Shown in pieces: positions 1 to 54,758 of a DNA stretch of 64,000 bases. Under the pieces are notes generated by a model. The model worked only from the letters and a program-made list of their open reading frames with translations, ran no database searches and had not been told where the DNA came from. This DNA is from a virus. The stretch is taken from IMG/VR virus record IMGVR_UViG_3300027724_000010, positions 5,815 through 69,814 of that record. One strand, 5' to 3'. A program made the position numbers and the translations under genes. The first letter of the stretch is position 1, and the number at the start of each line of letters is the position of its first letter.

Positions 1-177
1 AAAAAGAATAATAAATATTCAGATAATTTTATAAATGGTACACAAAGTAGATATGTATATTCTATTAAACCAGAAAAAGATATTATAGTTACTCCTAAAA
101 AAACAAATAAAGATGATGCAGATGCTTTTTTTGATAACGAAGAAAATAAACAATTAGAAGCTCAACGACAACGAAAA

Positions 178-636
178 GTGGATGAAATTAACTCTATTGT
201 AGATATTAATAAGCTAAACGAAATGGAGTCTAAAGTACCAGCAGATAAATTAGAGTTTTATAAACCACATTTTGATAGACGTCGACAAGAGTTAAAAACT
301 CCAAATATACCAAATCAAGAAGCACCTAAAGTATATGCTGATAGAGTAGTTACTGTTAATGGTAGAGAAATACTTGTTAAAGTATCTGGTGGTATGTATT
401 ACACTAATGGTAAAGCTGTACCAGAAACAGAGAATGTAACTATAAGTCTTGCTAGAGTAAAAATAGACATCATAGATGGAGTACTAAGAACAGCTAATCA
501 CGAAGGTAAAAATTATTATATTTTATCAAATGGTAAAGTAGTAAGTGCTGATGCAGAAACTTTAGGTTCTGAAACAGTAAAAGATAGATTTAAAAAAGAT
601 ATAATCATAGCGAAAGCTTCTAAATATAAGTGCTAA
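178..636 (+). CDS. hypothetical protein; stop overlaps the next gene's start (TAATG)
   Basis: 152-aa ORF with ordinary amino-acid composition, co-oriented with and translationally coupled to the giant ORF. Confidence 0.6.
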   Translation: MDEINSIVDINKLNEMESKVPADKLEFYKPHFDRRRQELKTPNIPNQEAPKVYADRVVTVNGREILVKVSGGMYYTNGKAVPETENVTISLARVKIDIIDGVLRTANHEGKNYYILSNGKVVSADAETLGSETVKDRFKKDIIIAKASKYKC

Positions 637-3600
637 TGGCGTGTAAAATAAGTGTAAAAGATACAGTATATAATAGTATTGCTAATATAGCAGGTAGTGA
701 AGACGTATTCAGTAAAGAAGCAGCAATTAAAAAAGCTAGACGTATTAATGCTATATGGGGTGATAAAACAGCTACTATAACTCAATATAGAAGTGAAGGT
801 GGTTATAAAGTAGTTACTCATAACCTAGATAAAATAATAGAAAGAGAGTATGAAAAACAATTAAGAATCGAACAAAATTTAAATCAACAACTTGGTAACC
901 TTAATAACGATATACCTACTTCTGAAGCTGAAGTATCAATAGAAGAAGAAGTATTTGATAATACTTTCGAATTCTATAATGTTAACAATCCAGATAAACT
1001 TAGACAATCACAAATACGATCTTTAAATAGTTTATTAGATAGATCTGTAAGAGCATTAGGATTTACTAAAACTACTATAAAAAAATATAATGAAGATTAT
1101 CAACGTAGAAATCCTGGTAAAAAGTTAAATCAACAAGGTCTTATAAATCTAATAGATAAACAAATTGCTCTTGGTGAGAGATCTGAAATAGATGGTGTAA
1201 CTTATGCTGAAGAAGTATTTCATGGTATTGTAGCAGCTAACGAAACAGCTCAGGAGTTTCAAGATATAATCAATCTTAGAGATGCTGATGGTATATTAGA
1301 AATATCTAAAACAGATATATATAAGAAAAATTATGAAACTTATATGTCTGCTTATGGTGGTGATGAGAATAAAGTTAAATTAGAAATAGTAGGTAAACTA
1401 CTTGCTCAAGCAATATATGATAAATTTGCTTATGATAGTATACCACAAAAACTATTAAGAGCTATTGATAAATTCTTTTCATTTTTTACAAAAAAACTAA
1501 GATTAGCTAATCTATTAGATAGAAATCAATTTAATAAAGATTTGTATGCTGCTTTAGATATAGTTATGGAGAATTGGCAAAACGATATGTATAATCATCC
1601 GTTTACAACTGCTGTTCCAGTAACTGTTCCATTTGTTTTTAAAGAAATAAATAATTTTGAAGATACTATTATAAAAAATACATCAGAATTACGATCTAAA
1701 GTTAGACAATTAGAAGAGAGACAAGGTGGATTGATAGGTAACTATAATACAAAATATGAAGATTTAACTAAAAAATATTCAGGAATATCTAATAAAACAA
1801 AATATCTAGCAGATTTAGAAGCTAAAGCTACGAAAACACCATTATCTAGATATGAGCAACAGCAAGTCTCAGAATTAAAAGAGTATTTTATTCTTAAAAA
1901 TATAGATGATATAGATGTAAATAGAGAGAAACAAGTAAAAACTATTAATGGTAGAATAAAAGAAATAAATAATCTAATAAACAAAAATAAACTACAATTA
2001 GGTATACATACTTATTTTTTTGGTATTAATAATAGTGGTGGAGCAAATGAAGATATAGAACAACTTTATAAATATATGCAAAAAGTTGTTAAACAAAAGT
2101 TATTCTTGAGTATGGAATCTTGGCACAGCTTAAACGAATCTTATAACTTACATATAAATATCATAAACGAATTGCGAGCTTGGTACCAAGATAGTAGTAA
2201 TGGTAGAAATGAGTTTCCAGAGTTAACAAAAGAACAAAATAAAAGATTAAAAGATGTTGTATTTGGATTAAAAGTTAAGTTGGATTGGATAAATACATCA
2301 TTAAATTCTTCTGCTAAATCTGTTAAAAGAGATTTTCATAAAAAATATGTAGATTTAAATCCAAATATAGATACAACTGAAAATAATAGTTATACAGAAA
2401 TAGGTAACTTTAGAAAATATTTCGGATCACTTAGAAACGCGCAAGACGAAACTGCTAGATTATTCTATAAAACAATAATGGATGTAAATAATTTAGTTCA
2501 TAATAAAGTATTAAATAATACTATAGATTTTTATAATAAACATAAAGATCTTATAAAAAGAATGGGTCCAAAAGAGTTTAATAAACTTAGAGAAAAAGAT
2601 GCTAGTGGTAATCAAACACATTATTGGTTGAGTGATAGATTAACAAGCGTATTTGAGTTTAATTATAATTCGTTTAGAGAAACAACTATTAAAAATTTAA
2701 TAATATACGCTAAACAAAAACATAACAAAGATTATAACATACCGTTTGATGAGTTCGAGTTATCTGAGTTTTTTAATGCTACAACTTTAAATAATATTTC
2801 TTCTGCTGTATTAGATAACGAATTACTAATAAGAGAAGAATTGCGTAATATGTATAATGCAGCATATGGTAATTGGATAAGTTTAAATACAGAGCTTAAA
2901 TACAACTATGAAGATATTATAGAACAGCGTAGACTATCTATGAATAAAACTAAATTTGCTAAATGGTTACAATTAAATGCTCCTACTCATACATATACTA
3001 AAAAAGATGGTACAGTTGTTACTACTGTTATTTATAAAGGAGAACTTATTAAACCATCGAGCGGTCAAAAAAACCTATTAGGTAATCTAACAGAAGATTA
3101 TACAAATCCAGAATACAATAGATTAAGATCTACTAATCCAGAATATATAGAACTATTAGAAGATCTAAAAGAAAAATCGTTAGATGCTAAGCGTAAATTA
3201 CCTTTACATAATTACTCATGGGAGTACTCAGAAAGATTACCACAAGTATCTAAATCTACTATGGATTTATTTGGTAGTAGTTTATCTAACTATACTGAAA
3301 AATTTAAAGAATCATTTTCAGCTAGACCAGATGATGATATGTATGCTAATAGAGCTGGTAATACAATATTAGAGAGACCACCTATTAGATTTATAGAAAA
3401 GATAAATCCAGATCTAATAACAGATGATTTATTTAAATCAGTAATGATGGTAGAAGAAATGTCTGTTAATTTTGTAGAGTTTACTAAAGAATTACCTACT
3501 TTACATGGTATATTAGATTTAGTTAAACGCGGAGATGTTGTAGACAAAGGTATAAGACTATCTAAAAATCCTAGAGATTCGGTATCTGATTTAGAAAAAA

Positions 3601-5781: not shown

Positions 5782-5832
5782 TTTATTAAAGTTTGTGTTG
5801 TTATTTCTAAAGCATATAATGTAGCATCTTCA

Positions 5833-23425: not shown

Positions 23426-24865
23426 TTAATATGTTTTTATGGACAACGATTCACCATTTGCAACAAAAGTTGCTGTTGTTGGACCAAATAACGGACGGAT
23501 TGTTACTTGTAAATCATCAAATTTAGTTATATAATCTAAAGTACCGTCTGTTTTTTTATAAACTACAGTATGTAATTGTCTTTCTTTAAAAAACGGTATA
23601 AAATCTATTACTGTATTAAGTAACCTAGGTTGTTCACTATTAAAAAATTTATCTGCAGAATCTGATTTATTATAAAATCTTCCACGAATAGCATTATAAA
23701 TATGTTTATCTTTAACTATAATACCATCCACAAAAAGTATTTTATTAGTATAACTAGATTTTTTACTAAATAAAGCATACATTTCTTTCATAGCTGTATT
23801 AGGATTTAAAACACACTTATATTCTCCTTCAAGTGGTTTTCCAAGATTCATATCAGTATATCTACACTGATGTAAATTAATTCTTGGGTGTGCTACAGGA
23901 GAATCATTAAATGTTTTTCCTTCAGTAATATTTTTAATTATAGCTACATTTGTACTATGATTAACTACACCAGATGTTGCTTTAATTTTTGGCGCAGTAT
24001 AATCCCAACCGAGATAATTATTATTATAATAAGTTGTTTTCTCTTCATGATTTCTAACTATAATTTCAGATTTCTCTAACGCATGATTATGAAATGTTAA
24101 TAACTCATTATTTTGTACTTCTTGTACTTTATATAACCTATCAAAAACAAGATATAACGCATTTTTGATACTACTAAAATACCAACCACTAGGTGTTTCT
24201 ACATAATACAAAGGTCTCTCTTCAGTATCGTTATTAGCACCTTTCCATGCTTTAAAACAATTATTAGTATAATATAATAATGCAGCATATCCTTTGTAAA
24301 ATTTTAAAACATCAGCTTCATCTGCTTTACCAGATAGTGCTCTTCCTAGCGACATTGCTAAGTAATGCGAGTCTATATGTAATTGCTCATCAACATTCTC
24401 TACATCTTTTAAAAATTCTCTTTTAATATCATACATATTTGATAAAGTCCCGTTATGAGCTAAAGAAAAATGATTTAACCCATCCGAAGATTTATATACA
24501 AATGGATGACAATTATTAACATTATAAGTACCAATTGTACCTTTTCTTGTATGAAATATACAAGGTTTATTTAGTAATGGTATCTTTTCGATATTTTCGA
24601 ATTCGCTAGCTATAAAATCTCTAGCTTTTTTTTCTAAATTAGTACCAGTAAATCTAGTATCAGCTATAGATAAACCACAAGAATCGGTACCTCTATCTTC
24701 ATTTATTATACCTAATAAGTATAATTTATTTATATTAACTTTTTTACCCTTCTTCGGATAAAAACCAGCAAGTCCACAAGCTAATATATTTCTATCTGGT
24801 TTCATTAAATATCCCATAAATAGAGATATTAAAAAATAATATATTATAAAATTAATCAACATCAT
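23426..24865 (-). CDS. class-II (Ntn) glutamine amidotransferase-like protein
   Basis: N-terminal …ILACGLAGFY with a candidate nucleophile Cys after a short leader, plus DRGTDSCGLS; 479 aa. Confidence 0.5.
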   Translation of the reverse strand: MMLINFIIYYFLISLFMGYLMKPDRNILACGLAGFYPKKGKKVNINKLYLLGIINEDRGTDSCGLSIADTRFTGTNLEKKARDFIASEFENIEKIPLLNKPCIFHTRKGTIGTYNVNNCHPFVYKSSDGLNHFSLAHNGTLSNMYDIKREFLKDVENVDEQLHIDSHYLAMSLGRALSGKADEADVLKFYKGYAALLYYTNNCFKAWKGANNDTEERPLYYVETPSGWYFSSIKNALYLVFDRLYKVQEVQNNELLTFHNHALEKSEIIVRNHEEKTTYYNNNYLGWDYTAPKIKATSGVVNHSTNVAIIKNITEGKTFNDSPVAHPRINLHQCRYTDMNLGKPLEGEYKCVLNPNTAMKEMYALFSKKSSYTNKILFVDGIIVKDKHIYNAIRGRFYNKSDSADKFFNSEQPRLLNTVIDFIPFFKERQLHTVVYKKTDGTLDYITKFDDLQVTIRPLFGPTTATFVANGESLSIKTY

Positions 24866-25398: not shown

Positions 25399-27234
25399 TT
25401 ATTTTTTATCAATTAATCTTACAAATTCTTTTAAATAAACCGAAGCAGTAACTTCTGCCATACTTGGTGCAGAGTTAATTTCGATTATAGAAAATTCTGG
25501 AGAACTATTTTTACGTTCGTTTCCATCTTTATTTAAATTGGATTGTACTCTAACATCACAAGCTCCAAAATCTAATCCAACAGATTTGAGAGCTTTTATA
25601 CACTCATTCTGGATATTTTTTAAATTAACAGGAGCATCAAACAAAGGATTTTTCTCACTAATCCAATTACAGTTACTATTGTTAAAGAACCATTTTTGAT
25701 TAGCTGGAGTATCATTTCTCCTAAGCTTTCTCCACATTAAAAATACTCCATTAGTACTTACATGTATTCTATATTCTTTTGCAAAATTTTTAAATTTCTC
25801 AAAGATATAGTTTTCTATATTTCTACCTTTAGACCAACGTAACAACTCTTGTTCACTATCTAACTTATAATTACCTGTTCCACGAGATCCTAATATATGT
25901 TTTGCAACAATAGGATATTCTATATTAGAACCAGCTAAAGCACTAATAACATTGTCTATAGAATTTTGATAAACATACTCTGGTGTAGTTACTTTACCAT
26001 TTATAAAACAACGTTTCATTAGTAACTTAGATGAACTATTAGTTATAGCTTCTTCACTATTTAATACTACATCATACTCTTTAGTTGCTTTTGTTGTAGA
26101 TCCTAATCTTATTAATACTTTTTTAGTACTTTCTAAAACTTTTCTAAATACTCTATGAGATGGATGTCTAGATTTAATCTCAACTTCGTATCTTTTTTTA
26201 GTTTTATCTATATCATCTAAATAAGATTTATAATCAAATGTATATAATCTATCAACTAATTGATTAGTTAAACAATAACTATTATCAGGATTAAAAATAT
26301 AATAGATTTGTCTATCACCACATTGTACTTGATTACCTAATTTAATATAATCTCTAGACCTAGATACTTTATTAAGATATTTTTCTAATTCTACTGGGAA
26401 ATTATAAGCAATATATTGATCCCAAGATCCAGTATTTGGATCTATAGTTATACCTCTAATTTTAAAATCTACAATTTTATATTGTTTAAAAATATCCATT
26501 TTAGGATTATCTTTAGAATTATATAGAATAAAAGAAGTACTACTTTTAGCTATTTCGTTTAACTGTTTCATCGTTGTTAAGGCTTTTTCTATTGTTGTTT
26601 CATATGGTTCTTTAGTTTCACCTAAATATAAACCATATGGACCTGCTGCATTAGAAGCAACTTTATTAAAATGAGCTACTAACTCTTTTACAGTTACTTC
26701 TTTACAAACTACTGGAGGTAAAAAAGTATAAACTGAACTATTTATAGAACACCATGATAATTTTTTAATTCGATCAAACTCTGAATCATTTTTATCACAT
26801 ATATTTAAATAATTAAAGAGTATTTGTTGACCATAATAAAAATGTCTAAACATACAAAACGCATAATATCTATGTCTACTAGAAGTATAATCTCTTAAAT
26901 CTAGTTCAACAATTATAGACTCATTTATAGTAGTATAATTGCTAAGAAATTCGTATTTACCAGTAGCTTTAGATTCAAATATTTTAAATTTAAATCCAAA
27001 ATTTGATATTTCTTCTAAAATTTCTTCAAATGTTTTTTTAGTTTCATCGCACATTATTTTTATATCATCTTTCTTAAGAAATAGATACATATATCGTGAT
27101 GATGCTCCTGTAATAGCACCATTACAACCATTTAATCTATTAATACTACTACCAAGTAATAAATCTATATTCTCTTGTGTAAAAGGAGTACTACGAAATA
27201 TATGTGCAGAAAAATTTGATGTATTATGTCTCAT
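25399..27234 (-). CDS. ATP-grasp ligase (RimK/glutathione-synthetase-like C-terminal domain) with a large N-terminal domain of unknown function
   Basis: C-terminal YPIVAKHILGSRGTGNYKL…EYRIHV…E…N matches the ATP-grasp fold signature. Confidence 0.65.
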   Translation of the reverse strand: MRHNTSNFSAHIFRSTPFTQENIDLLLGSSINRLNGCNGAITGASSRYMYLFLKKDDIKIMCDETKKTFEEILEEISNFGFKFKIFESKATGKYEFLSNYTTINESIIVELDLRDYTSSRHRYYAFCMFRHFYYGQQILFNYLNICDKNDSEFDRIKKLSWCSINSSVYTFLPPVVCKEVTVKELVAHFNKVASNAAGPYGLYLGETKEPYETTIEKALTTMKQLNEIAKSSTSFILYNSKDNPKMDIFKQYKIVDFKIRGITIDPNTGSWDQYIAYNFPVELEKYLNKVSRSRDYIKLGNQVQCGDRQIYYIFNPDNSYCLTNQLVDRLYTFDYKSYLDDIDKTKKRYEVEIKSRHPSHRVFRKVLESTKKVLIRLGSTTKATKEYDVVLNSEEAITNSSSKLLMKRCFINGKVTTPEYVYQNSIDNVISALAGSNIEYPIVAKHILGSRGTGNYKLDSEQELLRWSKGRNIENYIFEKFKNFAKEYRIHVSTNGVFLMWRKLRRNDTPANQKWFFNNSNCNWISEKNPLFDAPVNLKNIQNECIKALKSVGLDFGACDVRVQSNLNKDGNERKNSSPEFSIIEINSAPSMAEVTASVYLKEFVRLIDKK

Positions 27235-27757: not shown

Positions 27758-28333
27758 TTAATATAATTTATTTATTAAATCTTTTATATAAGTTAAATTA
27801 TGTCTGTAAAAACCAGCACTATGCATCCATTCTGGATGAAACTGTACTGTTAATGCTTTTACTTTTGGAAACCACAGTATCTCTGGTTCTATTATACACT
27901 TTATTTCTTCTTTAGCTGTATAATGATGTTCAGTAGCGATACTACTATACCCAAACACTTTAAAATTTTCATCTTCTATAATATTTTTTGTCCACACCAA
28001 TTGATGATGTGCGCTATTTGTTAATATTTCTGTATCAAAAATACCTGTTTCTAGATTTCTTATTTTAATATTGTGCTCACTTGGATGCTTCATGTCTTGT
28101 ATAAGCGTTAATCCATTTAAAGCAGCAATTAATTGATGTCCACGACAAATACCAAAAATAGGTTTACCTTTTTTAACAGCATCGTAATACTGATTTATAT
28201 GTAATCTATCTTGATCAGATGGTTCTGGACCATAAATATTAGATTTATAGTTTTCTTTACCATAAATAGATGGATGGATATCAGCACCACCTGGTAAAAC
28301 TACAAAATCTTCACTTAAAAATCCATATTTCAT
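27758..28333 (-). CDS. class-I glutamine amidotransferase-like gamma-glutamyl hydrolase (PuuD/peptidase C26-like)
   Basis: VLPGGADI…GICRGHQL nucleophile elbow and C-terminal H…E (QFHPE). Confidence 0.7.
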   Translation of the reverse strand: MKYGFLSEDFVVLPGGADIHPSIYGKENYKSNIYGPEPSDQDRLHINQYYDAVKKGKPIFGICRGHQLIAALNGLTLIQDMKHPSEHNIKIRNLETGIFDTEILTNSAHHQLVWTKNIIEDENFKVFGYSSIATEHHYTAKEEIKCIIEPEILWFPKVKALTVQFHPEWMHSAGFYRHNLTYIKDLINKLY

Positions 28334-29214
28334 ACTGTTTCTAATATTATAAAGTCGTTATTTCTAATTAACTTGTTTTTTAACTTTTTACAAGCTTCTC
28401 TACTATATTCTGTATCATCTACTAATTTTAAATTATCGTAGTATTTATCATAATACTCATCCAATAAATTAGCATCTAATACTTTTTTTATCATTTTTAT
28501 ACCGTAATCCACAAACTGTGGATAGTTGTGTATACCAGCCCCTAACACTCTATATTCTATTCTATTAGATGCTTCTTGATCTTTACCTATTATTCTATGA
28601 TCGCTAAGATTTCCATATAACTTTCGTCTATCTACATCTTTATCATAATACATAGATTGAAAACCTAAAAATACATCATTAAGAATCATAAATTTATGTA
28701 ACTCTTCTTTTGTATATTTTTCATCCCAACCATAATGAATATGGTAACCACAACTTCTCAAATTACCTACCATAGCTGGATCTGGTCTAAACGATATATC
28801 ATTCCGATATACACTATAACTTGGTTCACAACCAAAAGTCATAGCTTGTTCGTTATCTAACTCCATCATATTATATCTAGCACTAGATACTATATCTAAA
28901 CTATACATTGGATCAATTTCTGCTAACCATTTATTAGTATATTCAATACAATCGTCAATTATAGATTTATACATCCAATACTCTTTCATTGGTGGTAATG
29001 TAAACTCTATCATTACATTATCTAATTGTTGAAAACATCCTTCTAAAGCTATAGGTTTAGGATCTTTTTTTGTACCTTCTACTATATTTATTAGAGATTG
29101 ATATTCATTTATACCCTTTATTATACACGGAAATTCAGGATCTCCCCCTATCAAAAAATTTGATTTCATTTTACTAGTTATTTTTATAATAAATATCTTT
29201 ATTACCCCATTCAA
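28330..29214 (-). CDS. amidoligase-like protein, paralogue of 21709..23424
   Basis: SCGYHIHYG motif equivalent to the HIHIG motif of the paralogue. Confidence 0.45.
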   Translation of the reverse strand: MNGVIKIFIIKITSKMKSNFLIGGDPEFPCIIKGINEYQSLINIVEGTKKDPKPIALEGCFQQLDNVMIEFTLPPMKEYWMYKSIIDDCIEYTNKWLAEIDPMYSLDIVSSARYNMMELDNEQAMTFGCEPSYSVYRNDISFRPDPAMVGNLRSCGYHIHYGWDEKYTKEELHKFMILNDVFLGFQSMYYDKDVDRRKLYGNLSDHRIIGKDQEASNRIEYRVLGAGIHNYPQFVDYGIKMIKKVLDANLLDEYYDKYYDNLKLVDDTEYSREACKKLKNKLIRNNDFIILETV

Positions 29215-29692
29215 TTGGAGTTTTGTTATTTTTTATGAGTATTTTATTTATATTTATAAACACATCACTACCCACAAATACTTTTTTACCAGAATATTGA
29301 TCACTCATTGGGTGAACAACTTCTAAAATATTTCCACTAACTATATTTGTTTTAAACTTTTGAGCATCTCTACCCATCAATAACCAAATAATATCTGGTC
29401 TTTTTTTACTTAAACTTGTTATTAGATGCTCAGTAAATGGTTTCCATATTTTACTATGAGAACCAGATAAACCTTGCTCAACAGTTAAAGAAGCGTTTAA
29501 TAATAAAACACCTTGCTCGCACCAATTAAACAATGATTTAGCTTGATAAACAGGATTACCATATATTGGAAACCCTGTTCTTTTTAATTCTTCAAATATT
29601 ATTTTTAAACTAGGATTTATATATCCATTTTCTGTAGCAAATGCTACTCCACACGCTGATGGTACACACTTGTATAATCCAGGATAAGGCAT
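29174..29692 (-). CDS. uracil-DNA glycosylase, exon 2 (family 1 UDG C-terminal two thirds)
   Basis: GVLLLNASLTV…GSHSKIWKPFTEHLI…IIWLLMGRDAQK…HPMS is colinear with family-1 UDG from the GQDPY motif onward. Confidence 0.85.
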   Translation of the reverse strand: MPYPGLYKCVPSACGVAFATENGYINPSLKIIFEELKRTGFPIYGNPVYQAKSLFNWCEQGVLLLNASLTVEQGLSGSHSKIWKPFTEHLITSLSKKRPDIIWLLMGRDAQKFKTNIVSGNILEVVHPMSDQYSGKKVFVGSDVFININKILIKNNKTPIEWGNKDIYYKNN

Positions 29693-30763
29693 TTTGTTAT
29701 CACTAAGACTCTTTATTCTTAGTTTCTGTACTTTTATTTTCGAGTTATAGGTACAGTTCAGACTATATCTTCTACTTTTCAGTAGTGCTGATTTCGTGGA
29801 TATATTATATTCTATAAATTATTATTTATAGTTTCAATATCTAGTCGTTAGGCATTTACTAATATATTATTATTAGATTTAGCAAGGGATTGTCCACTTC
29901 TGGATATTCCCCTTTTAACAGCATTTATACAGAACCCTCATGTAATTTATATATCATTGAAGGAATAATATAAGGTTTAATTATATTAGTAAAATTTATA
30001 ACAGATTTTAGTTTTATATAAATAGAATTATAATAGGAATGATAACTTGCTTCTATATTAAATTTATCTTTTAATAATTTTATTAAAAATAAAACTTCTT
30101 CTTTTGAGAATGAGCAAGTATATATCATATATCCATGTGTAGCTTTACTACCATCATCCATAAACCAAATTGCTAACCCAAAAGAATCAATTTTAGTTAT
30201 AAAATCTTTATTGATAATTTTAATATTATCTTTATAAAAAAAATTTCTATATTTACTAAATATAGGATTAGATTTACTTTTGAAAGTATAATTTTGATTT
30301 AATTTATTTTTAAATCTATTATCTATATTTTCGTAATATCTAAATTTTCCTGCTAATTTAAAATCATTTAAAAAATTATGTTTATATTGACAATACTCTT
30401 TTTGTTTTACACCATGTGCGAAAACCATGCTGGATTGTTTTGCTAATCCTGATATTTTAGATAGGTACCCATCACCTAATAATGAACCAATTATAAATTG
30501 ATCCAAAATATCCGAATCTATACTTAGATATCTATTCGATTTTAAACTATAACGATTTAAATCTGAAATGACCTTTTTTACAGGTATTTTCAGCAAATCA
30601 GCAATTTCTATATTAGTTAATTTATTAGAATATAATTCTAATATATTTTCTGTTAATTTACTTTTTTTTCGTATTTTCATTGTGAATTATTTTTCACAAA
30701 TATACTAAATTAATCCTAATATCCCAACTTTATTATATTAATAAATTGTTAAATATTTTAAAA
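29690..30763 (-). mobile_element. group I intron interrupting the UDG gene after the GQD codons; carries a LAGLIDADG endonuclease ORF
   Basis: UDG ORF breaks at GQD|PYPG; minus-sense R-like CCTAACGACTAGAT (~29843) and S-like GATATAGTCTGAAC (~29748); the last intron base is G (omega-G) immediately before the CCT codon. Confidence 0.65.
29925..30680 (-). CDS. LAGLIDADG homing endonuclease (double-motif)
   Basis: FIIGSLLGDGYLSK and LAIWFMDDGSK motifs ~100 aa apart. Confidence 0.8.
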   Translation of the reverse strand: MKIRKKSKLTENILELYSNKLTNIEIADLLKIPVKKVISDLNRYSLKSNRYLSIDSDILDQFIIGSLLGDGYLSKISGLAKQSSMVFAHGVKQKEYCQYKHNFLNDFKLAGKFRYYENIDNRFKNKLNQNYTFKSKSNPIFSKYRNFFYKDNIKIINKDFITKIDSFGLAIWFMDDGSKATHGYMIYTCSFSKEEVLFLIKLLKDKFNIEASYHSYYNSIYIKLKSVINFTNIIKPYIIPSMIYKLHEGSV

Positions 30764-31009
30764 ATCCTGTCCCAATATAACAACTTTCGTATTATCATAC
30801 TCGCACTCACTAAATGCTCTAAATACTTGATTTTTTTCAGGATATACGATTGTATTTTCATATAATACATCTAAATTATTTAACAATTCGTCTAATCTAG
30901 AATCTAATCCTGTTTCTTTTACAAAATTATTCCACGTTTTAAACTCCGGAACCATTTTTATAATTTTTAGAACCATTTGTAGCTTTAAAAAATCCAACAC
31001 CAAATTCAA
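30758..31009 (-). CDS. uracil-DNA glycosylase, exon 1
   Basis: …VYPEKNQVFRAF…KVVILGQD matches the UDG N-terminal segment up to the water-activating GQDPY loop. Confidence 0.8.
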   Translation of the reverse strand: MNLVLDFLKLQMVLKIIKMVPEFKTWNNFVKETGLDSRLDELLNNLDVLYENTIVYPEKNQVFRAFSECEYDNTKVVILGQDF

Positions 31010-31090
31010 ATAAAATCACACATAATAAATACCACCAGCTTGGTTGTATATCGTCTGGTAACATTAGTTGAACTAGTATAAACGTTTCTG

Positions 31091-31420
31091 TCATATACCT
31101 AATAAATTTTTAATTAAATTAGAAGAATAATTATCATATAATTCTTCCGAATGGTACTGAACGGCAGCTATTGGTAAAGTTTCATGTCGAAATGCTTCAA
31201 TAAGTAAACCACCATCTTCAGTAGAGTCTTCAGAAAACAATAAAGGTTCTAAATCTTTACCTAAATTCAATAAACAAACAGCTTGATGATGATGAGAATT
31301 TACTTTAAATTCTTTAGTATGTTTTTTTACAGTATATGGTGTATCAATACCAGAATAAACGTCGTGAGCTGTAGCCCATCTACTAGATGATTGTGGATGA
31401 TATATTAAATTTTGAGTCAA
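31091..31420 (-). CDS. class-I GATase-like gamma-glutamyl hydrolase, exon 2
   Basis: …SHHHQAV…LPIAAVQYHSEE corresponds to the catalytic His/Glu region of class-I amidotransferases. Confidence 0.65.
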   Translation of the reverse strand: MTQNLIYHPQSSSRWATAHDVYSGIDTPYTVKKHTKEFKVNSHHHQAVCLLNLGKDLEPLLFSEDSTEDGGLLIEAFRHETLPIAAVQYHSEELYDNYSSNLIKNLLGI

Positions 31421-31423
31421 CTT

Positions 31424-32410
31424 AGATCCAAAATATACTGCTAATTGTTGTCAATTTGTTATCTTACAAGTTCTTTATCTTGTAATTCTTATAGTTTCCT
31501 ATAAGTTCAGACTATATCATATTCTTTATAATTTATTTACTTTTTATAACTATTATTAATATTTTTTATTATATTTGCACTTATGAATAAAAATGAACAA
31601 ATAGTAAAATCGCTTCATAAAGAAGGATTAAACGATAGTCAAATTAATGCTATAAGTGGTATATATAGAAGTACTGTTGGTAAAATACGTAAAAAATTAG
31701 ATTTAGAATCTAATGGTTCTAAATATGTACCATTATACAGTAAACTTAAAGAACTCTATTTGGATAATCTAACGGATTCTGAAATAGCTAAAAAATTAGA
31801 TATATCAGATAAAGCTGTATTCTATATTAGAAAACAATTAGATTTAAAAACCAAATTTAAAGTTAAAAAATATTATAACTCTATTGATAAAAGAAAAGGT
31901 TACTGGTTACGTAATATTCGTAATTCAGCAATGCAAAGAAATTTAGATTATAACTTACAAATAGAAGATTTTGATTTACCAGAATTTTGTCCACTACTTG
32001 GGACAAAATTAAATTATAATGGTAAACCAAATGATCCTTATAACGCTAGTATAGATCGTATAGATAATACTAAAGGTTATATTAAAGGTAATGTTATAGT
32101 TATATCTAGAAAAGCTAACCAAATGAAAAATTCTGGTACACTTGACGAATTATTAACTTTTGCTTCTAATATCAATATTCTTGTAAATTATTATAAAGAT
32201 CAAGGCGCTCTTGGAGATATTACCGACGTATTTCCAAACATAGTATTATGTAAAGAAATTTAGTCTCGATCTCTAGTCGTTGAACTTTTAAAGTTATTTC
32301 TAACTAAACTTAGCTGCTGATTGACATATACAATATATATTGTACTTAGTGTTCCAGCAATTCACCTCATTTTTAACCATAAATCACTTTATGGTGGGTC
32401 CCAACATTAG
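31424..32410 (-). mobile_element. group I intron in the class-I GATase gene, carrying an antisense HNH endonuclease ORF in its P8 region
   Basis: host ORF breaks right after GICLGF; minus-sense R AAAGTTCAACGACTAG (~32280) and S GATATAGTCTGAAC (~31503); plausible U/G splice sites giving …GICLGF|TQNLIYHPQ…. Confidence 0.6.
31583..32263 (+). CDS. HNH homing endonuclease (IDRIDN-type) with an N-terminal helix-turn-helix-like region
   Basis: PLLGTKLNYNGKPNDPYNASIDRIDNTKGYIKGNVIVISRKANQMKN; encoded opposite to the surrounding genes and the intron. Confidence 0.75.
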   Translation: MNKNEQIVKSLHKEGLNDSQINAISGIYRSTVGKIRKKLDLESNGSKYVPLYSKLKELYLDNLTDSEIAKKLDISDKAVFYIRKQLDLKTKFKVKKYYNSIDKRKGYWLRNIRNSAMQRNLDYNLQIEDFDLPEFCPLLGTKLNYNGKPNDPYNASIDRIDNTKGYIKGNVIVISRKANQMKNSGTLDELLTFASNINILVNYYKDQGALGDITDVFPNIVLCKEI

Positions 32411-32721
32411 TTAAACCCTAAACATATACCGAATATAGGAGTTTTAGAATCAATATACGCTTTCAATCTATTATTCATAAAGAAATCTTTATAAACATCT
32501 GTATTAGAAGTATAAAATCCTGGTACTTCACCATAATTTGCTGGATTAACATCTAATCCACCTGGTAATAGTATCATATCTACATCTACTTTTTCTTCCC
32601 ACGGTAATATAATACGTGGATTACCAAAATTACTAATAAACTCTAAATATGTTTTATTAGCACCAAAACTGTTATCACCCATAGATGATCCTGGAATACC
32701 TATTACTTTTTTTTTACTCAT
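32407..32721 (-). CDS. class-I GATase-like gamma-glutamyl hydrolase, exon 1
   Basis: ILLPGGLDV…PIFGICLGF nucleophile-elbow region; the ORF stops immediately after it. Confidence 0.65.
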   Translation of the reverse strand: MSKKKVIGIPGSSMGDNSFGANKTYLEFISNFGNPRIILPWEEKVDVDMILLPGGLDVNPANYGEVPGFYTSNTDVYKDFFMNNRLKAYIDSKTPIFGICLGFN

Positions 32722-33116
32722 TATTTTGTTATTTTATTTATCCACATCTTTATAGTATTACCACTAGATGGATTTATAAAAGTTTTTACTAACAACCAGT
32801 TATTATTCTTTTCTAATACTTTCTCAAGAAATACACAAGTACCATAACCATTTGTATTTATAATTAAATCATTATGACGTTTTGCTATTTCTGTAAATAA
32901 TTCTGATATAGCATCTATATGATCACTACTAAAATCACTATATCCAGTCATTCTAAAATTACCTATTTCGGATGCACCGCAACAATAAGGTAAGTCACTT
33001 ATTAACATATCTATAGTAGATAAACCATTATTATAACTTATTATTAATTGATCATATTTAAATAAACTATCTATCCAACTTTTTAAATCTTTAATTTTAT
33101 ATTTGTTTTCCATCAA
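32721..33116 (-). CDS. hypothetical protein
   Basis: 131-aa ORF; TGATG overlap with the GATase exon. Confidence 0.5.
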   Translation of the reverse strand: MMENKYKIKDLKSWIDSLFKYDQLIISYNNGLSTIDMLISDLPYCCGASEIGNFRMTGYSDFSSDHIDAISELFTEIAKRHNDLIINTNGYGTCVFLEKVLEKNNNWLLVKTFINPSSGNTIKMWINKITK

Positions 33117-35734: not shown

Positions 35735-36321
35735 TTTTTGTACAGTATTTTTACCGTTAGATCCAGTAACAATAGCAAACTCTTCTTTTCTTCTAACAGT
35801 ACAAAATACATGACAACTTGATGTTAATATCGCATCAATGAAACGATTATGTCTTGGAGTTACACTACCCCAATTCTGAAATGTACCACCTAATCTAGAA
35901 TGTATTTCTAAACAACCCGTTTAGATTCTTATTATTTCTAATAAGCTTAGACTATATCTTATTTATTATTAAGCATGTATTTACTATTATAAATATAATT
36001 AATATTATTAATTGTATTAACAATACAATAAATACCAGAAACTGGTGAAACGGATCTCCAGTTACTTAATATAAATTGCTCCGTTTCGGGAATACTATTT
36101 AGTATTTTATCCCTACTCCCCATCACAGGGATAGTCGTTGAACTTTCACCATTTAAGGCGCTTAGCTGCTGATTGTCCATTTTATAAATATTTTTTGCAA
36201 ATATACAATAAATATTTAAATATATATATTATTTTCAAACTTTCACGCTTATTTTTTCAAATTACGTTGTAGTTAACATATCTTTAGGAGTTTCCAGCAA
36301 TTAGAAGCATAAAGGCAGTTG
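35735..36321 (-). mobile_element. ORF-less group I intron in the RecA-fold ATPase gene, homologous to the GATase intron core
   Basis: minus-sense R AAAGTTCAACGACT (~36145) and S GATATAGTCTAAGC (~35950); shares agtcgttgaacttt…cttagctgctgattg…ccagcaatt blocks with 32270-32370; elevated local GC. Confidence 0.6.
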
Positions 36322-36645
36322 TTATTTACCTTCTCCGCTCCATTCATGTGTGATACTATCTATTATAATTACATCCATTTCAGCTTTTTCTGCTGTATGG
36401 ATAGCTTCAATATATCTTTCTGGAGTATACGGCGCTGTTAAACTTATAGTATTAAACTCACCCATATCCGAATATAAAGAAGCAGAATCTCTCTCTGTGT
36501 CTATTACACAAATCTTAGACCAATCTCCACATAACCCATATGCTGTTTTTAAAGCACTATAGGTTTTACCACTACCTGCTGATGCAGAAAATAGTATTCT
36601 CAATTTTTTAGCTTTCTTGGAAGCTTTCTTTAAAACAAAACTCAT
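36322..36645 (-). CDS. RecA-fold ATPase (Sak4/AAA_24-like), exon 1
   Basis: Walker A SASAGSGKT and Walker B VIIIDSITHEW. Confidence 0.65.
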   Translation of the reverse strand: MSFVLKKASKKAKKLRILFSASAGSGKTYSALKTAYGLCGDWSKICVIDTERDSASLYSDMGEFNTISLTAPYTPERYIEAIHTAEKAEMDVIIIDSITHEWSGEGK

Positions 36646-54411: not shown

Positions 54412-54517
54412 TAAAGCAGATGGGACTCGAACCCACGACCACGGCTTTATCAGTGCTGTTAAATTATTATAAGTAGATATTCTACTATACGTGCTCTACC
54501 AGCTGAGCTACTGCTTT
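54412..54517 (-). tRNA. tRNA-like gene with a ~35-nt insertion between the D-arm and anticodon arm; anticodon-loop-like CUGAUAA (Ile GAU-like); non-canonical
   Basis: acceptor AAAGCAG/CTGCTTT, D-arm GCTC-AGCTGGTA-GAGC and T-arm GTGGG-TTCGAGT-CCCAT are all canonical; the middle is 56 nt instead of ~22 and the anticodon stem is weak. Confidence 0.35.
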
Positions 54518-54559
54518 ATTAAAATACACTATTATTAGTCTAACCAATTGACGTACTAT

Positions 54560-54592
54560 CCATGCGGATTGTATAGGACTTGAACCTATCTT
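54560..54592 (-). ncRNA. tRNA 3'-half-like element (T-arm plus a second hairpin), driven by the conserved promoter copy 1
   Basis: minus-sense ATAGG-TTCAAGT-CCTAT T-arm followed by ATCC-GCAT-GGAT; the 3' tail CAATCCGC is shared with the element at 54340. Confidence 0.3.
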
Positions 54593-54606
54593 GCTCGAAA
54601 GCTATT

Positions 54607-54649
54607 AGTTATTATAAGTGTATTATTTGTATCTTTGTCAGATGCGAGG
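54607..54649 (-). promoter_or_regulatory. sigma70-like promoter, copy 1 of a conserved 43-nt element
   Basis: minus-sense CCTCGCATCTGACAAAGATACAAATAATACACTTATAATAACT has a -35-like CTGACA, ~18-nt spacer and -10 TATAAT; 42/43 identical to 55721-55763. Confidence 0.5.
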
Positions 54650-54758
54650 GGAGTACAGGATTCGAACCTGTGTTACGAGCACCCAAAGCTATTTTAAAGT
54701 ATTATAAGTACGTAAACATACTGTATATACGCGTCCTAAACCACTAGACGAACTCCCC
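54646..54758 (-). tRNA. tRNA-like gene with a ~39-nt insertion between the D-arm and anticodon arm; anticodon-loop-like UUUGGGU (Pro UGG-like); non-canonical
   Basis: acceptor GGGGAGT/ACTCCCC, D-arm GTCT-AGTGGTTTA-GGAC and T-arm ACAGG-TTCGAAT-CCTGT are canonical; the insert is related to that of the 54412 element (CGTATA…TACTTATAATAMTTTAA). Confidence 0.35.

Follow-up and report, generated by a model that had tools for sequence, protein, structure and literature searches.

A probable mobile group I intron, of subgroup-IA type, between the GQD and PY codons of a viral uracil-DNA glycosylase gene

The interrupted gene and its intronless alleles

We analysed a stretch of viral DNA of 64,000 nucleotides (positions 5,815 to 69,814 of IMG/VR record IMGVR_UViG_3300027724_000010; hereafter the window), in which a gene for a family-1 uracil-DNA glycosylase (UDG) is interrupted by an insert that holds a gene for a LAGLIDADG homing endonuclease. 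All features of the UDG gene, the insert and the endonuclease gene lie on the minus strand. According to the sequence and the list of open reading frames (ORFs), UDG exon 1 (30764..30955) extends from ATG at 30955 to GAT at 30764 and encodes M1-D64, with the end ...VVILGQD, so that the gene is interrupted after the codon of Asp64 of GQD. It resumes at CCT (29689) with exon 2 (29174..29689), which begins PYPGLYK, encodes P65-N235 and reaches its stop codon at 29174. The initial annotation of this DNA had given exon 1 as 30758..31009 and exon 2 as 29174..29692. The GQD end of the former and the stop codon and PYPG of the latter are retained, but exon 1 starts at ATG 30955 (MVPEFKTW), as does the intronless homologue P0001, and not at TTG 31009, and the ATG at 29692..29690 constitutes the last three nucleotides of the intron and not the start of an exon. 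In the uninterrupted reading of the DNA, the exon-1 ORF (...NTKVVILGQD-F-stop) continues for two codons, F and stop, into the insert and ends at 30758, while the exon-2 ORF, M-PYPGLYKCVPSACG..., spans 29692..29174. Gene callers list this UDG in two pieces, with a LAGLIDADG gene in addition.

Family-1 UDGs carry the water-activating loop GQDPY, of which the Asp is catalytic. Joining GAT to CCT restores GQDPY in frame and gives a coding sequence of 708 nt for a protein of 235 amino acids. This product passes the Pfam profile UDG (PF03167; 40.6 bits, cutoff 24.3), has 7743 database homologues and aligns without a gap across the junction with solved family-1 UDGs, among them B. subtilis Ung (3zoq; E 2e-31, residues 7-230, VVILGQDPY). 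Hence the claim that exon 1 ends at the catalytic GQD and that exon 2 continues from PYPG colinearly with family-1 UDGs is borne out, and so is the restored frame of the translated junction that had been suggested as a check. The joined protein contains the catalytic motifs GQDPY, GVLLLNASLTV (with the Asn of the LLLN segment) and VVHPMSDQ (the His loop). The His loop reads HPM instead of HPSPLS, and the residue after the Y of GQDPY is P, not H; GQDPYP is common to 16 of the 120 UDG homologues listed. By profile, alignment and motifs, the joined product is a family-1 uracil-DNA glycosylase, with predicted activity. Since unspliced RNA meets a stop two codons after Asp64, full-length UDG would require splicing, and a strict dependence of UDG activity on splicing, as initially proposed, would be a reasonable inference.

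The best homologue of the joined product is P0001, an uninterrupted protein of 235 amino acids with 98% identity, encoded on five metagenomic contigs (L002-L006); these sister contigs with an intronless UDG gene are 98-100% identical. Contig L002 matches the window over 31451..30774 at 100% and over 29689..28866 at 98%, and 30763..29690 is absent from it. Because the intronless alleles lack 30763..29690, the boundaries of the insert are exact, and it follows a U and ends in a G. The insert comprises 1074 nt (29690..30763), with the 5' splice site after U30764 and omega-G, its last base, at G29690; it begins UUUUAA... and finishes ...ACAAAAUG, that is, with ...AAAAUG directly before CCU. The U at -1 and the G at the 3' end agree with the splice-site rules of group I introns. 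Both the intervening sequence of ~1.07 kb and its end in a G right before the CCT codon (G29690, followed by CCT at 29689) had been proposed, and comparison with the intronless alleles confirms them.

Given that the window appears to be metagenome-derived, that all matching contigs come from ENA/JGI metagenome assemblies and that related intron sequences are common, mis-assembly of a metagenome might have put the insert into the UDG gene. However, five independent assemblies from different projects and samples (JGI, ENA) agree at 100% over the interrupted 2-kb UDG locus, and the exact endonuclease protein is present on 10 contigs, so that the locus is not an accident of assembly. A chimera would also leave unaccounted for that the insertion is in frame, bounded by U and G, and endowed with a matching guide sequence. 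We consider this explanation so improbable as to be negligible.

Ribozyme core and guide sequence

A ribozyme core from P3 to P9.1, with a GC content of 27-28%, occupies the last ~235-250 nt of the intron. P3 pairs UGCUG (29923..29919) with CAGCA (29790..29786), and the domain that it delimits (29786..29923) encloses P4-P6, the 5' strand of P7 and P7.1. P4 (AAGGGG 29914..29909 / UCCCUU 29889..29884), P5 (29904..29901 / 29896..29893) and P6/P6a (29852..29883) are followed by the R element AACGACUA (29842..29849), whose GACUA (29846..29842) represents the 5' strand of P7, the guanosine-binding helix, and by the P7.1 arm (29799..29841). Downstream of P3 lie the P8 hairpin CUACU GAAA AGUAG (29772..29785), J8/7 with AAGAUA, and the S element UAGUC (29761..29765), the 3' strand of P7, which pairs with GACUA. 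The 3' domain (29690..29756) consists of P9 (CUGUAC 29756..29751 / GUACAG 29731..29726), P9.1 (ACUAAGA 29723..29717 / UCUUAGU 29708..29702, with the loop AUAAAGAG) and a GAUAACAAAAUG tail to omega-G at 29690, and is common to >100 viral contigs. The R- and S-like elements of the initial annotation are indeed both there, as AACGACUAGA at 29849 and GAUAUAGUCUGAAC at 29769, and are invariant in all 25-30 aligned relatives. The S element GATATAGTCTGAAC is found in >119 IMG/VR contigs, most of which share the 3' domain: P9, a second hairpin with the loop GGAUAAAGAGCC, and the tail GAUAACA..UG.

For a covariation test, the structure was derived from the window sequence and 25 full cores were aligned with MAFFT, an alignment not fitted to the structure. 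Standard pairs fill 93.2% of the 1136 cells; shuffled controls reach 65.6%, and shifting the partners by 1-3 columns leaves 33-39%. The covariation score amounts to 0.670 versus 0.178, with compensatory changes at 37 of the 47 pairs. Pairing within the family amounts to 94.9% for P3, 96.0% for P4, 82% for P7.1, 87% for P8, 99% for P9 and 98% for P9.1, and compensatory changes occur in P7.1, in all 5 pairs of P8, in 5/6 pairs of P9 and in 7/7 pairs of P9.1. At P3, many different complementary pairs (UGCUG/CAGCA in the window) occupy one fixed register, while in P7.1, which has an inner 8-bp hairpin, GAUAU/AUAUC covaries with GGUAU/AUACC and CACAU/AUGUG. Another register of P4, AGGGGA/UCCCUU, was rejected, as it is paired in only 55% of the family. 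Independently, RNAalifold predicted P7, P7.1, P8 and P9.1 from a separate alignment of 30 sequences. Furthermore, the fold of the last 280 nt beats those of shuffled sequences (z -3.6), with P3, P4, P5, P6, P8 and P9 in the minimum-free-energy structure.

Directly upstream of P3, an internal guide GUUCUGU (29929..29935), the 3' strand of P1, pairs with ACAGGAU at the end of the 5' exon (30770..30764) over 7 bp, with a G.U pair at the splice site, and the adjoining AUGAGG (29936..29941) pairs as P10 with CCUUAU of the 3' exon (29689..29684) over 6 contiguous bp. The complete guide AUGAGG|GUUCUGU (29941..29929) coincides with the last endonuclease codons (E G S V stop); it is separated from the 5' splice site by ~830 nt and from P3, further downstream, by the 5 nt AUAAA. 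From this position of the guide for both exons, at the ORF end and before P3, it follows that the endonuclease gene occupies the loop of P1 (L1) and that P2 is absent. P2 is likewise absent from many members of the family, others having an ordinary P2 hairpin. P1 and P2 placed in the 83-nt leader before the ORF were also considered; no guide better than 3 bp was found there, and the guide at the ORF end was favoured.

The guide changes together with the exons. We compared seven introns from 4 host genes, namely that of the window and six related ones, four of which interrupt other UDG or GQD-coding genes: cognate guides and exons form 6-7 bp, and non-cognate combinations with other genes 1-2 bp. 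Two UDG introns (L128, L131) have the guide GUCCUGU opposite ACAGGAU, and a third (L135) has GUCCUGA opposite UCAGGAU, a compensatory A-U/U-A change at position -7. The latter combination is also seen in L126, in a non-UDG gene ending ...NGQD, whereas in the P-loop of a DnaB-like helicase gene (L122, with a GIY-YIG ORF) GGUCUU faces AAGGCU, and in the crAssphage dUTPase gene (with an HNH ORF) GUAGUCU faces AGACUAU. P10 tracks the 3' exon as well (AGG/CCU versus UGG/CCA), and in L126 it makes 8 bp with its own, different 3' exon. The related introns keep the order of guide, (A/U)UAAA and P3. The layout with an endonuclease gene in the P1 loop, a guide that overlaps the ORF end and no P2 is common to introns with LAGLIDADG, GIY-YIG and HNH genes, and suggests a common docking site for endonuclease genes.

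Exons of a UDG that is split but not spliced would be translated into two polypeptides, residues 1-64 plus 2 and a fragment from AUG 29692, which either assemble or are inactive. The stop codon two codons past exon 1 and the final AUG of the intron, in frame with exon 2, are what such an arrangement would present, and phage genes divided by free-standing endonuclease genes are known. A simple cassette, however, leaves unexplained the complete covarying ribozyme core and a guide that matches both exon ends; the terminal AUG is not conserved, relatives ending in UUG, CUG or AAG; and the cut falls inside the catalytic loop, with an N-terminal fragment of 64 residues. A split, unspliced UDG is thus a very unlikely reading.

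In the covariance-model scan proposed for this locus, the Rfam family Intron_gpI (RF00028) gives a local match at 29749..29954(-), on P4/P6, R and J8/7-S, with 27.1 bits (E 3.4e-5) when 296 nt are searched alone. With our own family model R1, of which the window sequence is a seed member, the UDG intron scores 102 bits, and no members are found in the window beyond it and the intron of a neighbouring GATase gene (see below). Some observations speak against a group I intron that splices as drawn here. The Rfam score stays below the gathering cutoff of 50, which is an operational detection criterion and not a biochemical definition, and no Rfam intron was reported in the 64-kb search at the gathering threshold or in a 3.8-kb search by E-value (29100..32900). 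P7 is invariant across the family, so that covariation neither supports nor contradicts it, and P3 has only 5 bp in the window versus 7 in most relatives. In the minimum-energy fold, the 3' strand of P9 offers the guide an alternative partner, and translation of the endonuclease ORF runs through the guide, which could hinder formation of P1.

Altogether, the boundaries, the core covarying in 25 relatives, the guide pairing with both exons and the sub-cutoff Rfam match uphold the initial identification as a group I intron. An additional helix between P7 and the 3' strand of P3 assigns it to subgroup IA. Among the features of subgroup IA2, the extra P7.1 pairing is present, as one extended arm and not as two hairpins, and the P2 helix is absent; since there is no P2 between P1 and P3, we call the intron IA-like and P2-less, not IA2. 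With high confidence, we regard it as a mobile element, a group I intron with a P7.1 arm that belongs to the subgroup-IA type of phages and is inserted into the UDG gene between the codons of Asp64 and Pro65 (GQD|PY). We propose that the UDG gene is transcribed as one pre-mRNA, in which the guide would pair with the last seven bases of exon 1 (P1, with G.U at the cleavage site) and with the first six of exon 2 (P10). The core P3-P9.1 would bind guanosine at P7 and perform two transesterifications, and ligation of ...GGACAGGAU to CCUUAUCC... would yield the intact UDG. One may speculate that, with the end of the ORF inside the guide, translating ribosomes would occlude P1 and make endonuclease expression and UDG splicing mutually exclusive.

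The endonuclease gene and the divergent exon patch

The 5' part of the intron carries, as initially annotated, a double-motif LAGLIDADG ORF at 29925..30680, which we place specifically in the P1 loop. It encodes 251 amino acids of the I-SceI family with an N-terminal helix-turn-helix-like (HTH-like) extension. The protein matches LAGLIDADG_2 (PF03161) over residues 61-225 with 114.6 bits (cutoff 25, E 5.9e-33), and its translation shows both motifs, IIGSLLGDG and LAIWFMDDG, each with the catalytic acidic residue at its end. The nearest solved structures, matched over the whole fold, are PDB 6x1j, a related intron endonuclease (E 4.9e-15), and I-SceI itself (1r7m, E 1e-13); the ORF is of full length and intact, aligns with residues 37-225 of the 235-residue I-SceI, and has a PHROG match to phrog_11023. 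Its target would be ...GGACAGGAT^CCTTATCC... in an intronless UDG allele, to which the divergent exon patch described below lends indirect support.

The 5' part of the P1 loop is an AU-rich leader of 83 nt (30681..30763) with a hairpin UGUGAA/UUCACA and a TATATTTG box at 30697..30704 (-), 17 nt upstream of the endonuclease ATG. The same box recurs at 31570..31577 (+) and 36198..36205 (-), so that it stands 17, 5 and 17 nt upstream of the intronic ORFs of all three group I introns of the window, which share a stretch of 7 kb and lie in the UDG, GATase and ATPase genes; the window holds 26 copies, with 15.7 expected. The box fits TAnnTTTG, the -7 consensus of Bacteroidota promoters, and hints at separate promoters for the intron ORFs, TATATTTG being a putative promoter-like box, and at a Bacteroidota bacterium as the host. 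The nearest UDG relatives, together with this box, point to Bacteroidota as the probable host of this AT-rich phage.

The presence of a LAGLIDADG protein raises the alternative that the intron is real but is not self-splicing and needs a protein helper, be it its own LAGLIDADG protein as a maturase or a host or phage factor. A distance of ~830 nt between the 5' splice site and the guide, a P3 of 5 bp, a core with so little GC and the lack of P2 would all fit a need for assistance, and in fungal mitochondria LAGLIDADG proteins that double as maturases are established. The endonuclease, however, belongs to the I-SceI family, which is not known to include maturases; in related cores, GIY-YIG or HNH genes take this place, so that the helper cannot be a single specific protein family; and all elements of the catalytic core are conserved. 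We therefore deem dependence on a helper unlikely.

The intron-bearing and intronless alleles differ at 15-17 positions over the 708-nt coding sequence, and 14-15 of these (in L003, all 15) fall between -10 and +27 of the insertion site. In the upstream half of this patch (30764..30773, -10..-1), the window has GGGACAGGAT where the intronless alleles have AGCAATGGAT, encoding GQD versus AMD; the four differences in these 10 bp before the cleavage and insertion site are at -10, -8, -6 and -5. The downstream half (29663..29689, +1..+27) holds 10-11 of the differences and encodes PYPGLYKCV versus PYPGVYKNN. The 37-bp patch as a whole thus reads ILGQD|PYPGLYKCV in the intron-bearing and ILAMD|PYPGVYKNN in the intronless form; at the DNA level, the insertion site is ...TTGGGACAGGATCCTTATCCTGG... 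in the canonical intronless form and ...TTAGCAATGGATCCTTATCCAGG... in the AMD allele. Beyond the patch, exon 1 is 100% identical to L002 up to -11, with a single further exon-1 difference, at -145, in 2/5 intronless contigs, and exon 2 is identical to L003 from +28 onward.

This patch around the insertion site looks like a co-conversion tract of endonuclease-initiated homing. The I-SceI-type protein, perhaps expressed from its own TATATTTG box, would be predicted to cleave UDG alleles without the intron at the sequence that codes for GQDPY, and repair would copy in the intron with a short stretch of flanking exon; as the flanking exon would be copied along with the intron, the change from AMD...VYKNN to GQD...LYKCV would be explained. 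The next closest UDG relative, P0002 (67% identity), also has AMD, and AMD is on this account probably the older state in this small UDG clade, GQD having arrived with the intron. Against this, the intronless alleles could instead have acquired the patch as an escape from the endonuclease.

Among the 120 UDG homologues listed, GQD is the dominant loop motif, with AMD in 2 (P0001, P0002) and GMD in 2 (P0009, P0017). AMD and GMD thus occur only in four of the closest phage relatives among those listed, with the catalytic Asp kept (L002, 1487..1496). It is conceivable, although doubtful, that intron and endonuclease drive the evolution of the catalytic loop, AMD being an escape variant and homing re-installing GQD by co-conversion. 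If true, a motif in the active site of a DNA-repair enzyme would be switched back and forth by a selfish element in phage populations in nature. Independently of this, the pair of intron-plus and intron-minus alleles with a sharp 37-bp exchange patch offers a system for homing and co-conversion in uncultured Bacteroidota-type phages.

One may also ask whether a decaying, non-functional intron has left this phage with a UDG pseudogene. The Rfam score does not reach the threshold, many phages can do without UDG, and the closest intronless alleles already have the non-canonical AMD loop. Decay is hard to reconcile with intact exons free of frameshifts and stops, whose protein is 98% identical to the uninterrupted allele, with an endonuclease ORF of full length, with the retention of all conserved nucleotides and helices of the core, and with a locus identical in five assemblies from different samples. 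A pseudogene therefore has very little probability, and a functional mobile intron remains our reading of the locus.

Neighbouring introns, recurrence and known systems

A second group I intron of 962 nt (31452..32413, minus strand) interrupts the adjacent glutamine amidotransferase (GATase)/peptidase C26 gene 700 nt upstream, with exact boundaries by comparison with L002, whose uninterrupted gene defines the junctions ...GGGTT|...AACAAATTG|ACAACAA. It has a conventional P1 (GGGUU/GACCC) and P2, shares the 3' domain of the UDG intron and scores 57 bits with model R1; the 3.8-kb Rfam search gave no match to it. Its endonuclease ORF (31583..32263, plus strand; HTH and HNH/EndoVII-like; phrog_3322, E 1e-27) lies antisense between R and S, an orientation unusual for phage introns. 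In L003 (~1..219) and L004 (~1..180), the GATase gene has a group I intron at another position (...QYHS|EELYD...) than in the window, and close phages hence differ in the occupied sites of the same gene.

The third group I intron (~35876..36327, minus strand) lies in an AAA_24 (Sak4-like) ATPase gene and has no endonuclease gene. Its first exon closes with ...HEWSGEG at 36328; GCCUUU serves as the guide opposite GAAGGU, with R at 36139 and S at 35958. Rfam Intron_gpI gives 29.1 bits when the intron is searched alone, and 21 bits, both below the cutoff. No intronless homologue was found among the loci compared; for the 3' splice site 35876 is favoured and 35895 is possible, and the three candidate junctions give AAA_24 scores of 56.3, 53.2 and 49.6 bits. 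A 73-residue ORF (35959..36180), preceded by TATATTTG, runs through the core. None of the three introns of the window is reported at the curated threshold, which means that Rfam under-detects such elements; since it misses these introns and the S element occurs in >119 viral contigs, many phage genes are probably mis-annotated as truncated.

Two further features of the window may be mentioned. At 54412..54758 (-), two sequences match Rfam tRNA (45.9 and 40.4 bits), with the acceptor, D and T arms normal and the anticodon arm replaced by inserts of 46 and 52 nt; they flank a third, weaker unit, and all three inserts share ACUUAUAAUA...AGC. ARAGORN did not call the two tRNA-like units with long inserts in this interval, which could be intron-containing or otherwise atypical tRNA genes. 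An amidotransferase-type auxiliary gene cluster on the minus strand (27758..28333, 31091..32721, 23426..24865 and 25399..27234) comprises two peptidase C26/GATase paralogues, a protein that resembles glutamine-fructose-6-phosphate aminotransferase by weak PHROG matches (phrog_4736, E 1.5e-11) and a RimK-like member of the ribosomal protein S6 glutaminyl transferase family.

The UDG site is occupied repeatedly. At least three further distinct IMG/VR UDG genes (L128/129, L130-132 and L135) are cut at the same codon boundary, GGNCAGGAT|CC(A/T)TAT, and their introns carry LAGLIDADG genes 38-46% identical to that of the window, with a somewhat different core subtype (GGUGAAUUGCUGG...). On one JGI contig (protein P0012), an exon 1 of 71 amino acids is followed by a LAGLIDADG protein of 260 and an exon 2 of 170 amino acids from (L)PYHNKY; P0006 is a close uninterrupted relative of this split UDG. 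The core of the window, by contrast, is closest to that of the helicase intron in L122 (82% over 239 nt), so that endonuclease-plus-guide and core have no single, simple history in common. The endonuclease has its closest relative (51% identity) in L126/L127 (IMG/VR, 2494..3440), encoded in an intron of a non-UDG gene whose exon 1 ends ...NGQD (GGTCAGGAT|) and whose unrelated exon 2 (TTATATAATG...) fits the 8-bp P10. It has the appearance of a transposition into an ectopic site of similar DNA sequence.

Among 50,697 phage records, the only DNA match to the intron is the dUTPase intron of Carjivirus communis (BK010471; 76% over the 3' 83 nt). UDG matches in these records are all uninterrupted among those listed (30 of 102 records; best 37%), and the best-matching phage UDGs listed belong to Flavobacterium and Bacteroides crAss-like phages. 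In our full-text literature searches, no description of a UDG intron was found. Yutin et al. 2021 (PMC7886860) report dense group I introns in crAss-like phages, found via endonuclease domains, and list UDG as a crAss-like gene, with no UDG intron or RNA structures described. Like the intron of the window, the dUTPase intron of BK010471 has its endonuclease ORF 5' of the core, a guide GUAGUCU followed by UUAAA and P3, and no P2, and it comes from a Bacteroidota phage, as the window probably does, and from a genome dense with introns. It differs in its host gene, its HNH endonuclease and an ORF that runs through the core.

That phage group I introns reside in conserved catalytic segments, with homing endonucleases and co-conversion, is textbook knowledge from T4 td, nrdB and nrdD. 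Like T4 td/I-TevI and the nrdB/nrdD introns (IA2), the UDG intron lies in the conserved active-site segment of a gene of nucleotide metabolism or DNA repair, and with the td type it shares a homing endonuclease gene, probable co-conversion of flanking exon and an extra pairing between P7 and P3. Its core sequence also closely resembles that of td (AAxGGGGAA...GACAAUCCC.UGCUAAAU, AUGCCUAACGACUA, GAUAUAGUCUG). In contrast to td, the host gene is UDG, the endonuclease is a LAGLIDADG protein of the I-SceI family and not GIY-YIG, and the P7.1 region is a single extended arm instead of two hairpins. The td endonuclease ORF is situated in P6a, a downstream peripheral loop, whereas that of the window is in the P1 loop, with no P2.

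For this placement, our literature search on P1-loop ORFs returned precedents only from fungal mitochondria, where LAGLIDADG coding regions lie in loop L1 of IA1 introns, for example Hypomyces aurantius cox3-i2 (PMC4964425). The likeness to these introns is one of layout alone, a LAGLIDADG gene in L1 of a subgroup-IA intron; they are organellar, encode LAGLIDADG_1-type proteins and interrupt genes of the respiratory chain. I-SceI, from the yeast mitochondrial large-subunit rRNA intron, is likewise a monomeric double-motif LAGLIDADG protein encoded in a group I intron. The match to it is distant, the protein of the window has an extra N-terminal HTH-like segment of ~55 residues, and its predicted target is the GQDPY-coding DNA of UDG. 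In summary, the UDG intron leaves the general picture of group I introns unchanged, and phage introns of its general type are known. New are the host gene and the insertion site, which add UDG to the genes of nucleotide metabolism in which phage group I introns insert, at a codon boundary in the catalytic GQD|PY loop, and the compact P2-less layout with an ORF in L1.

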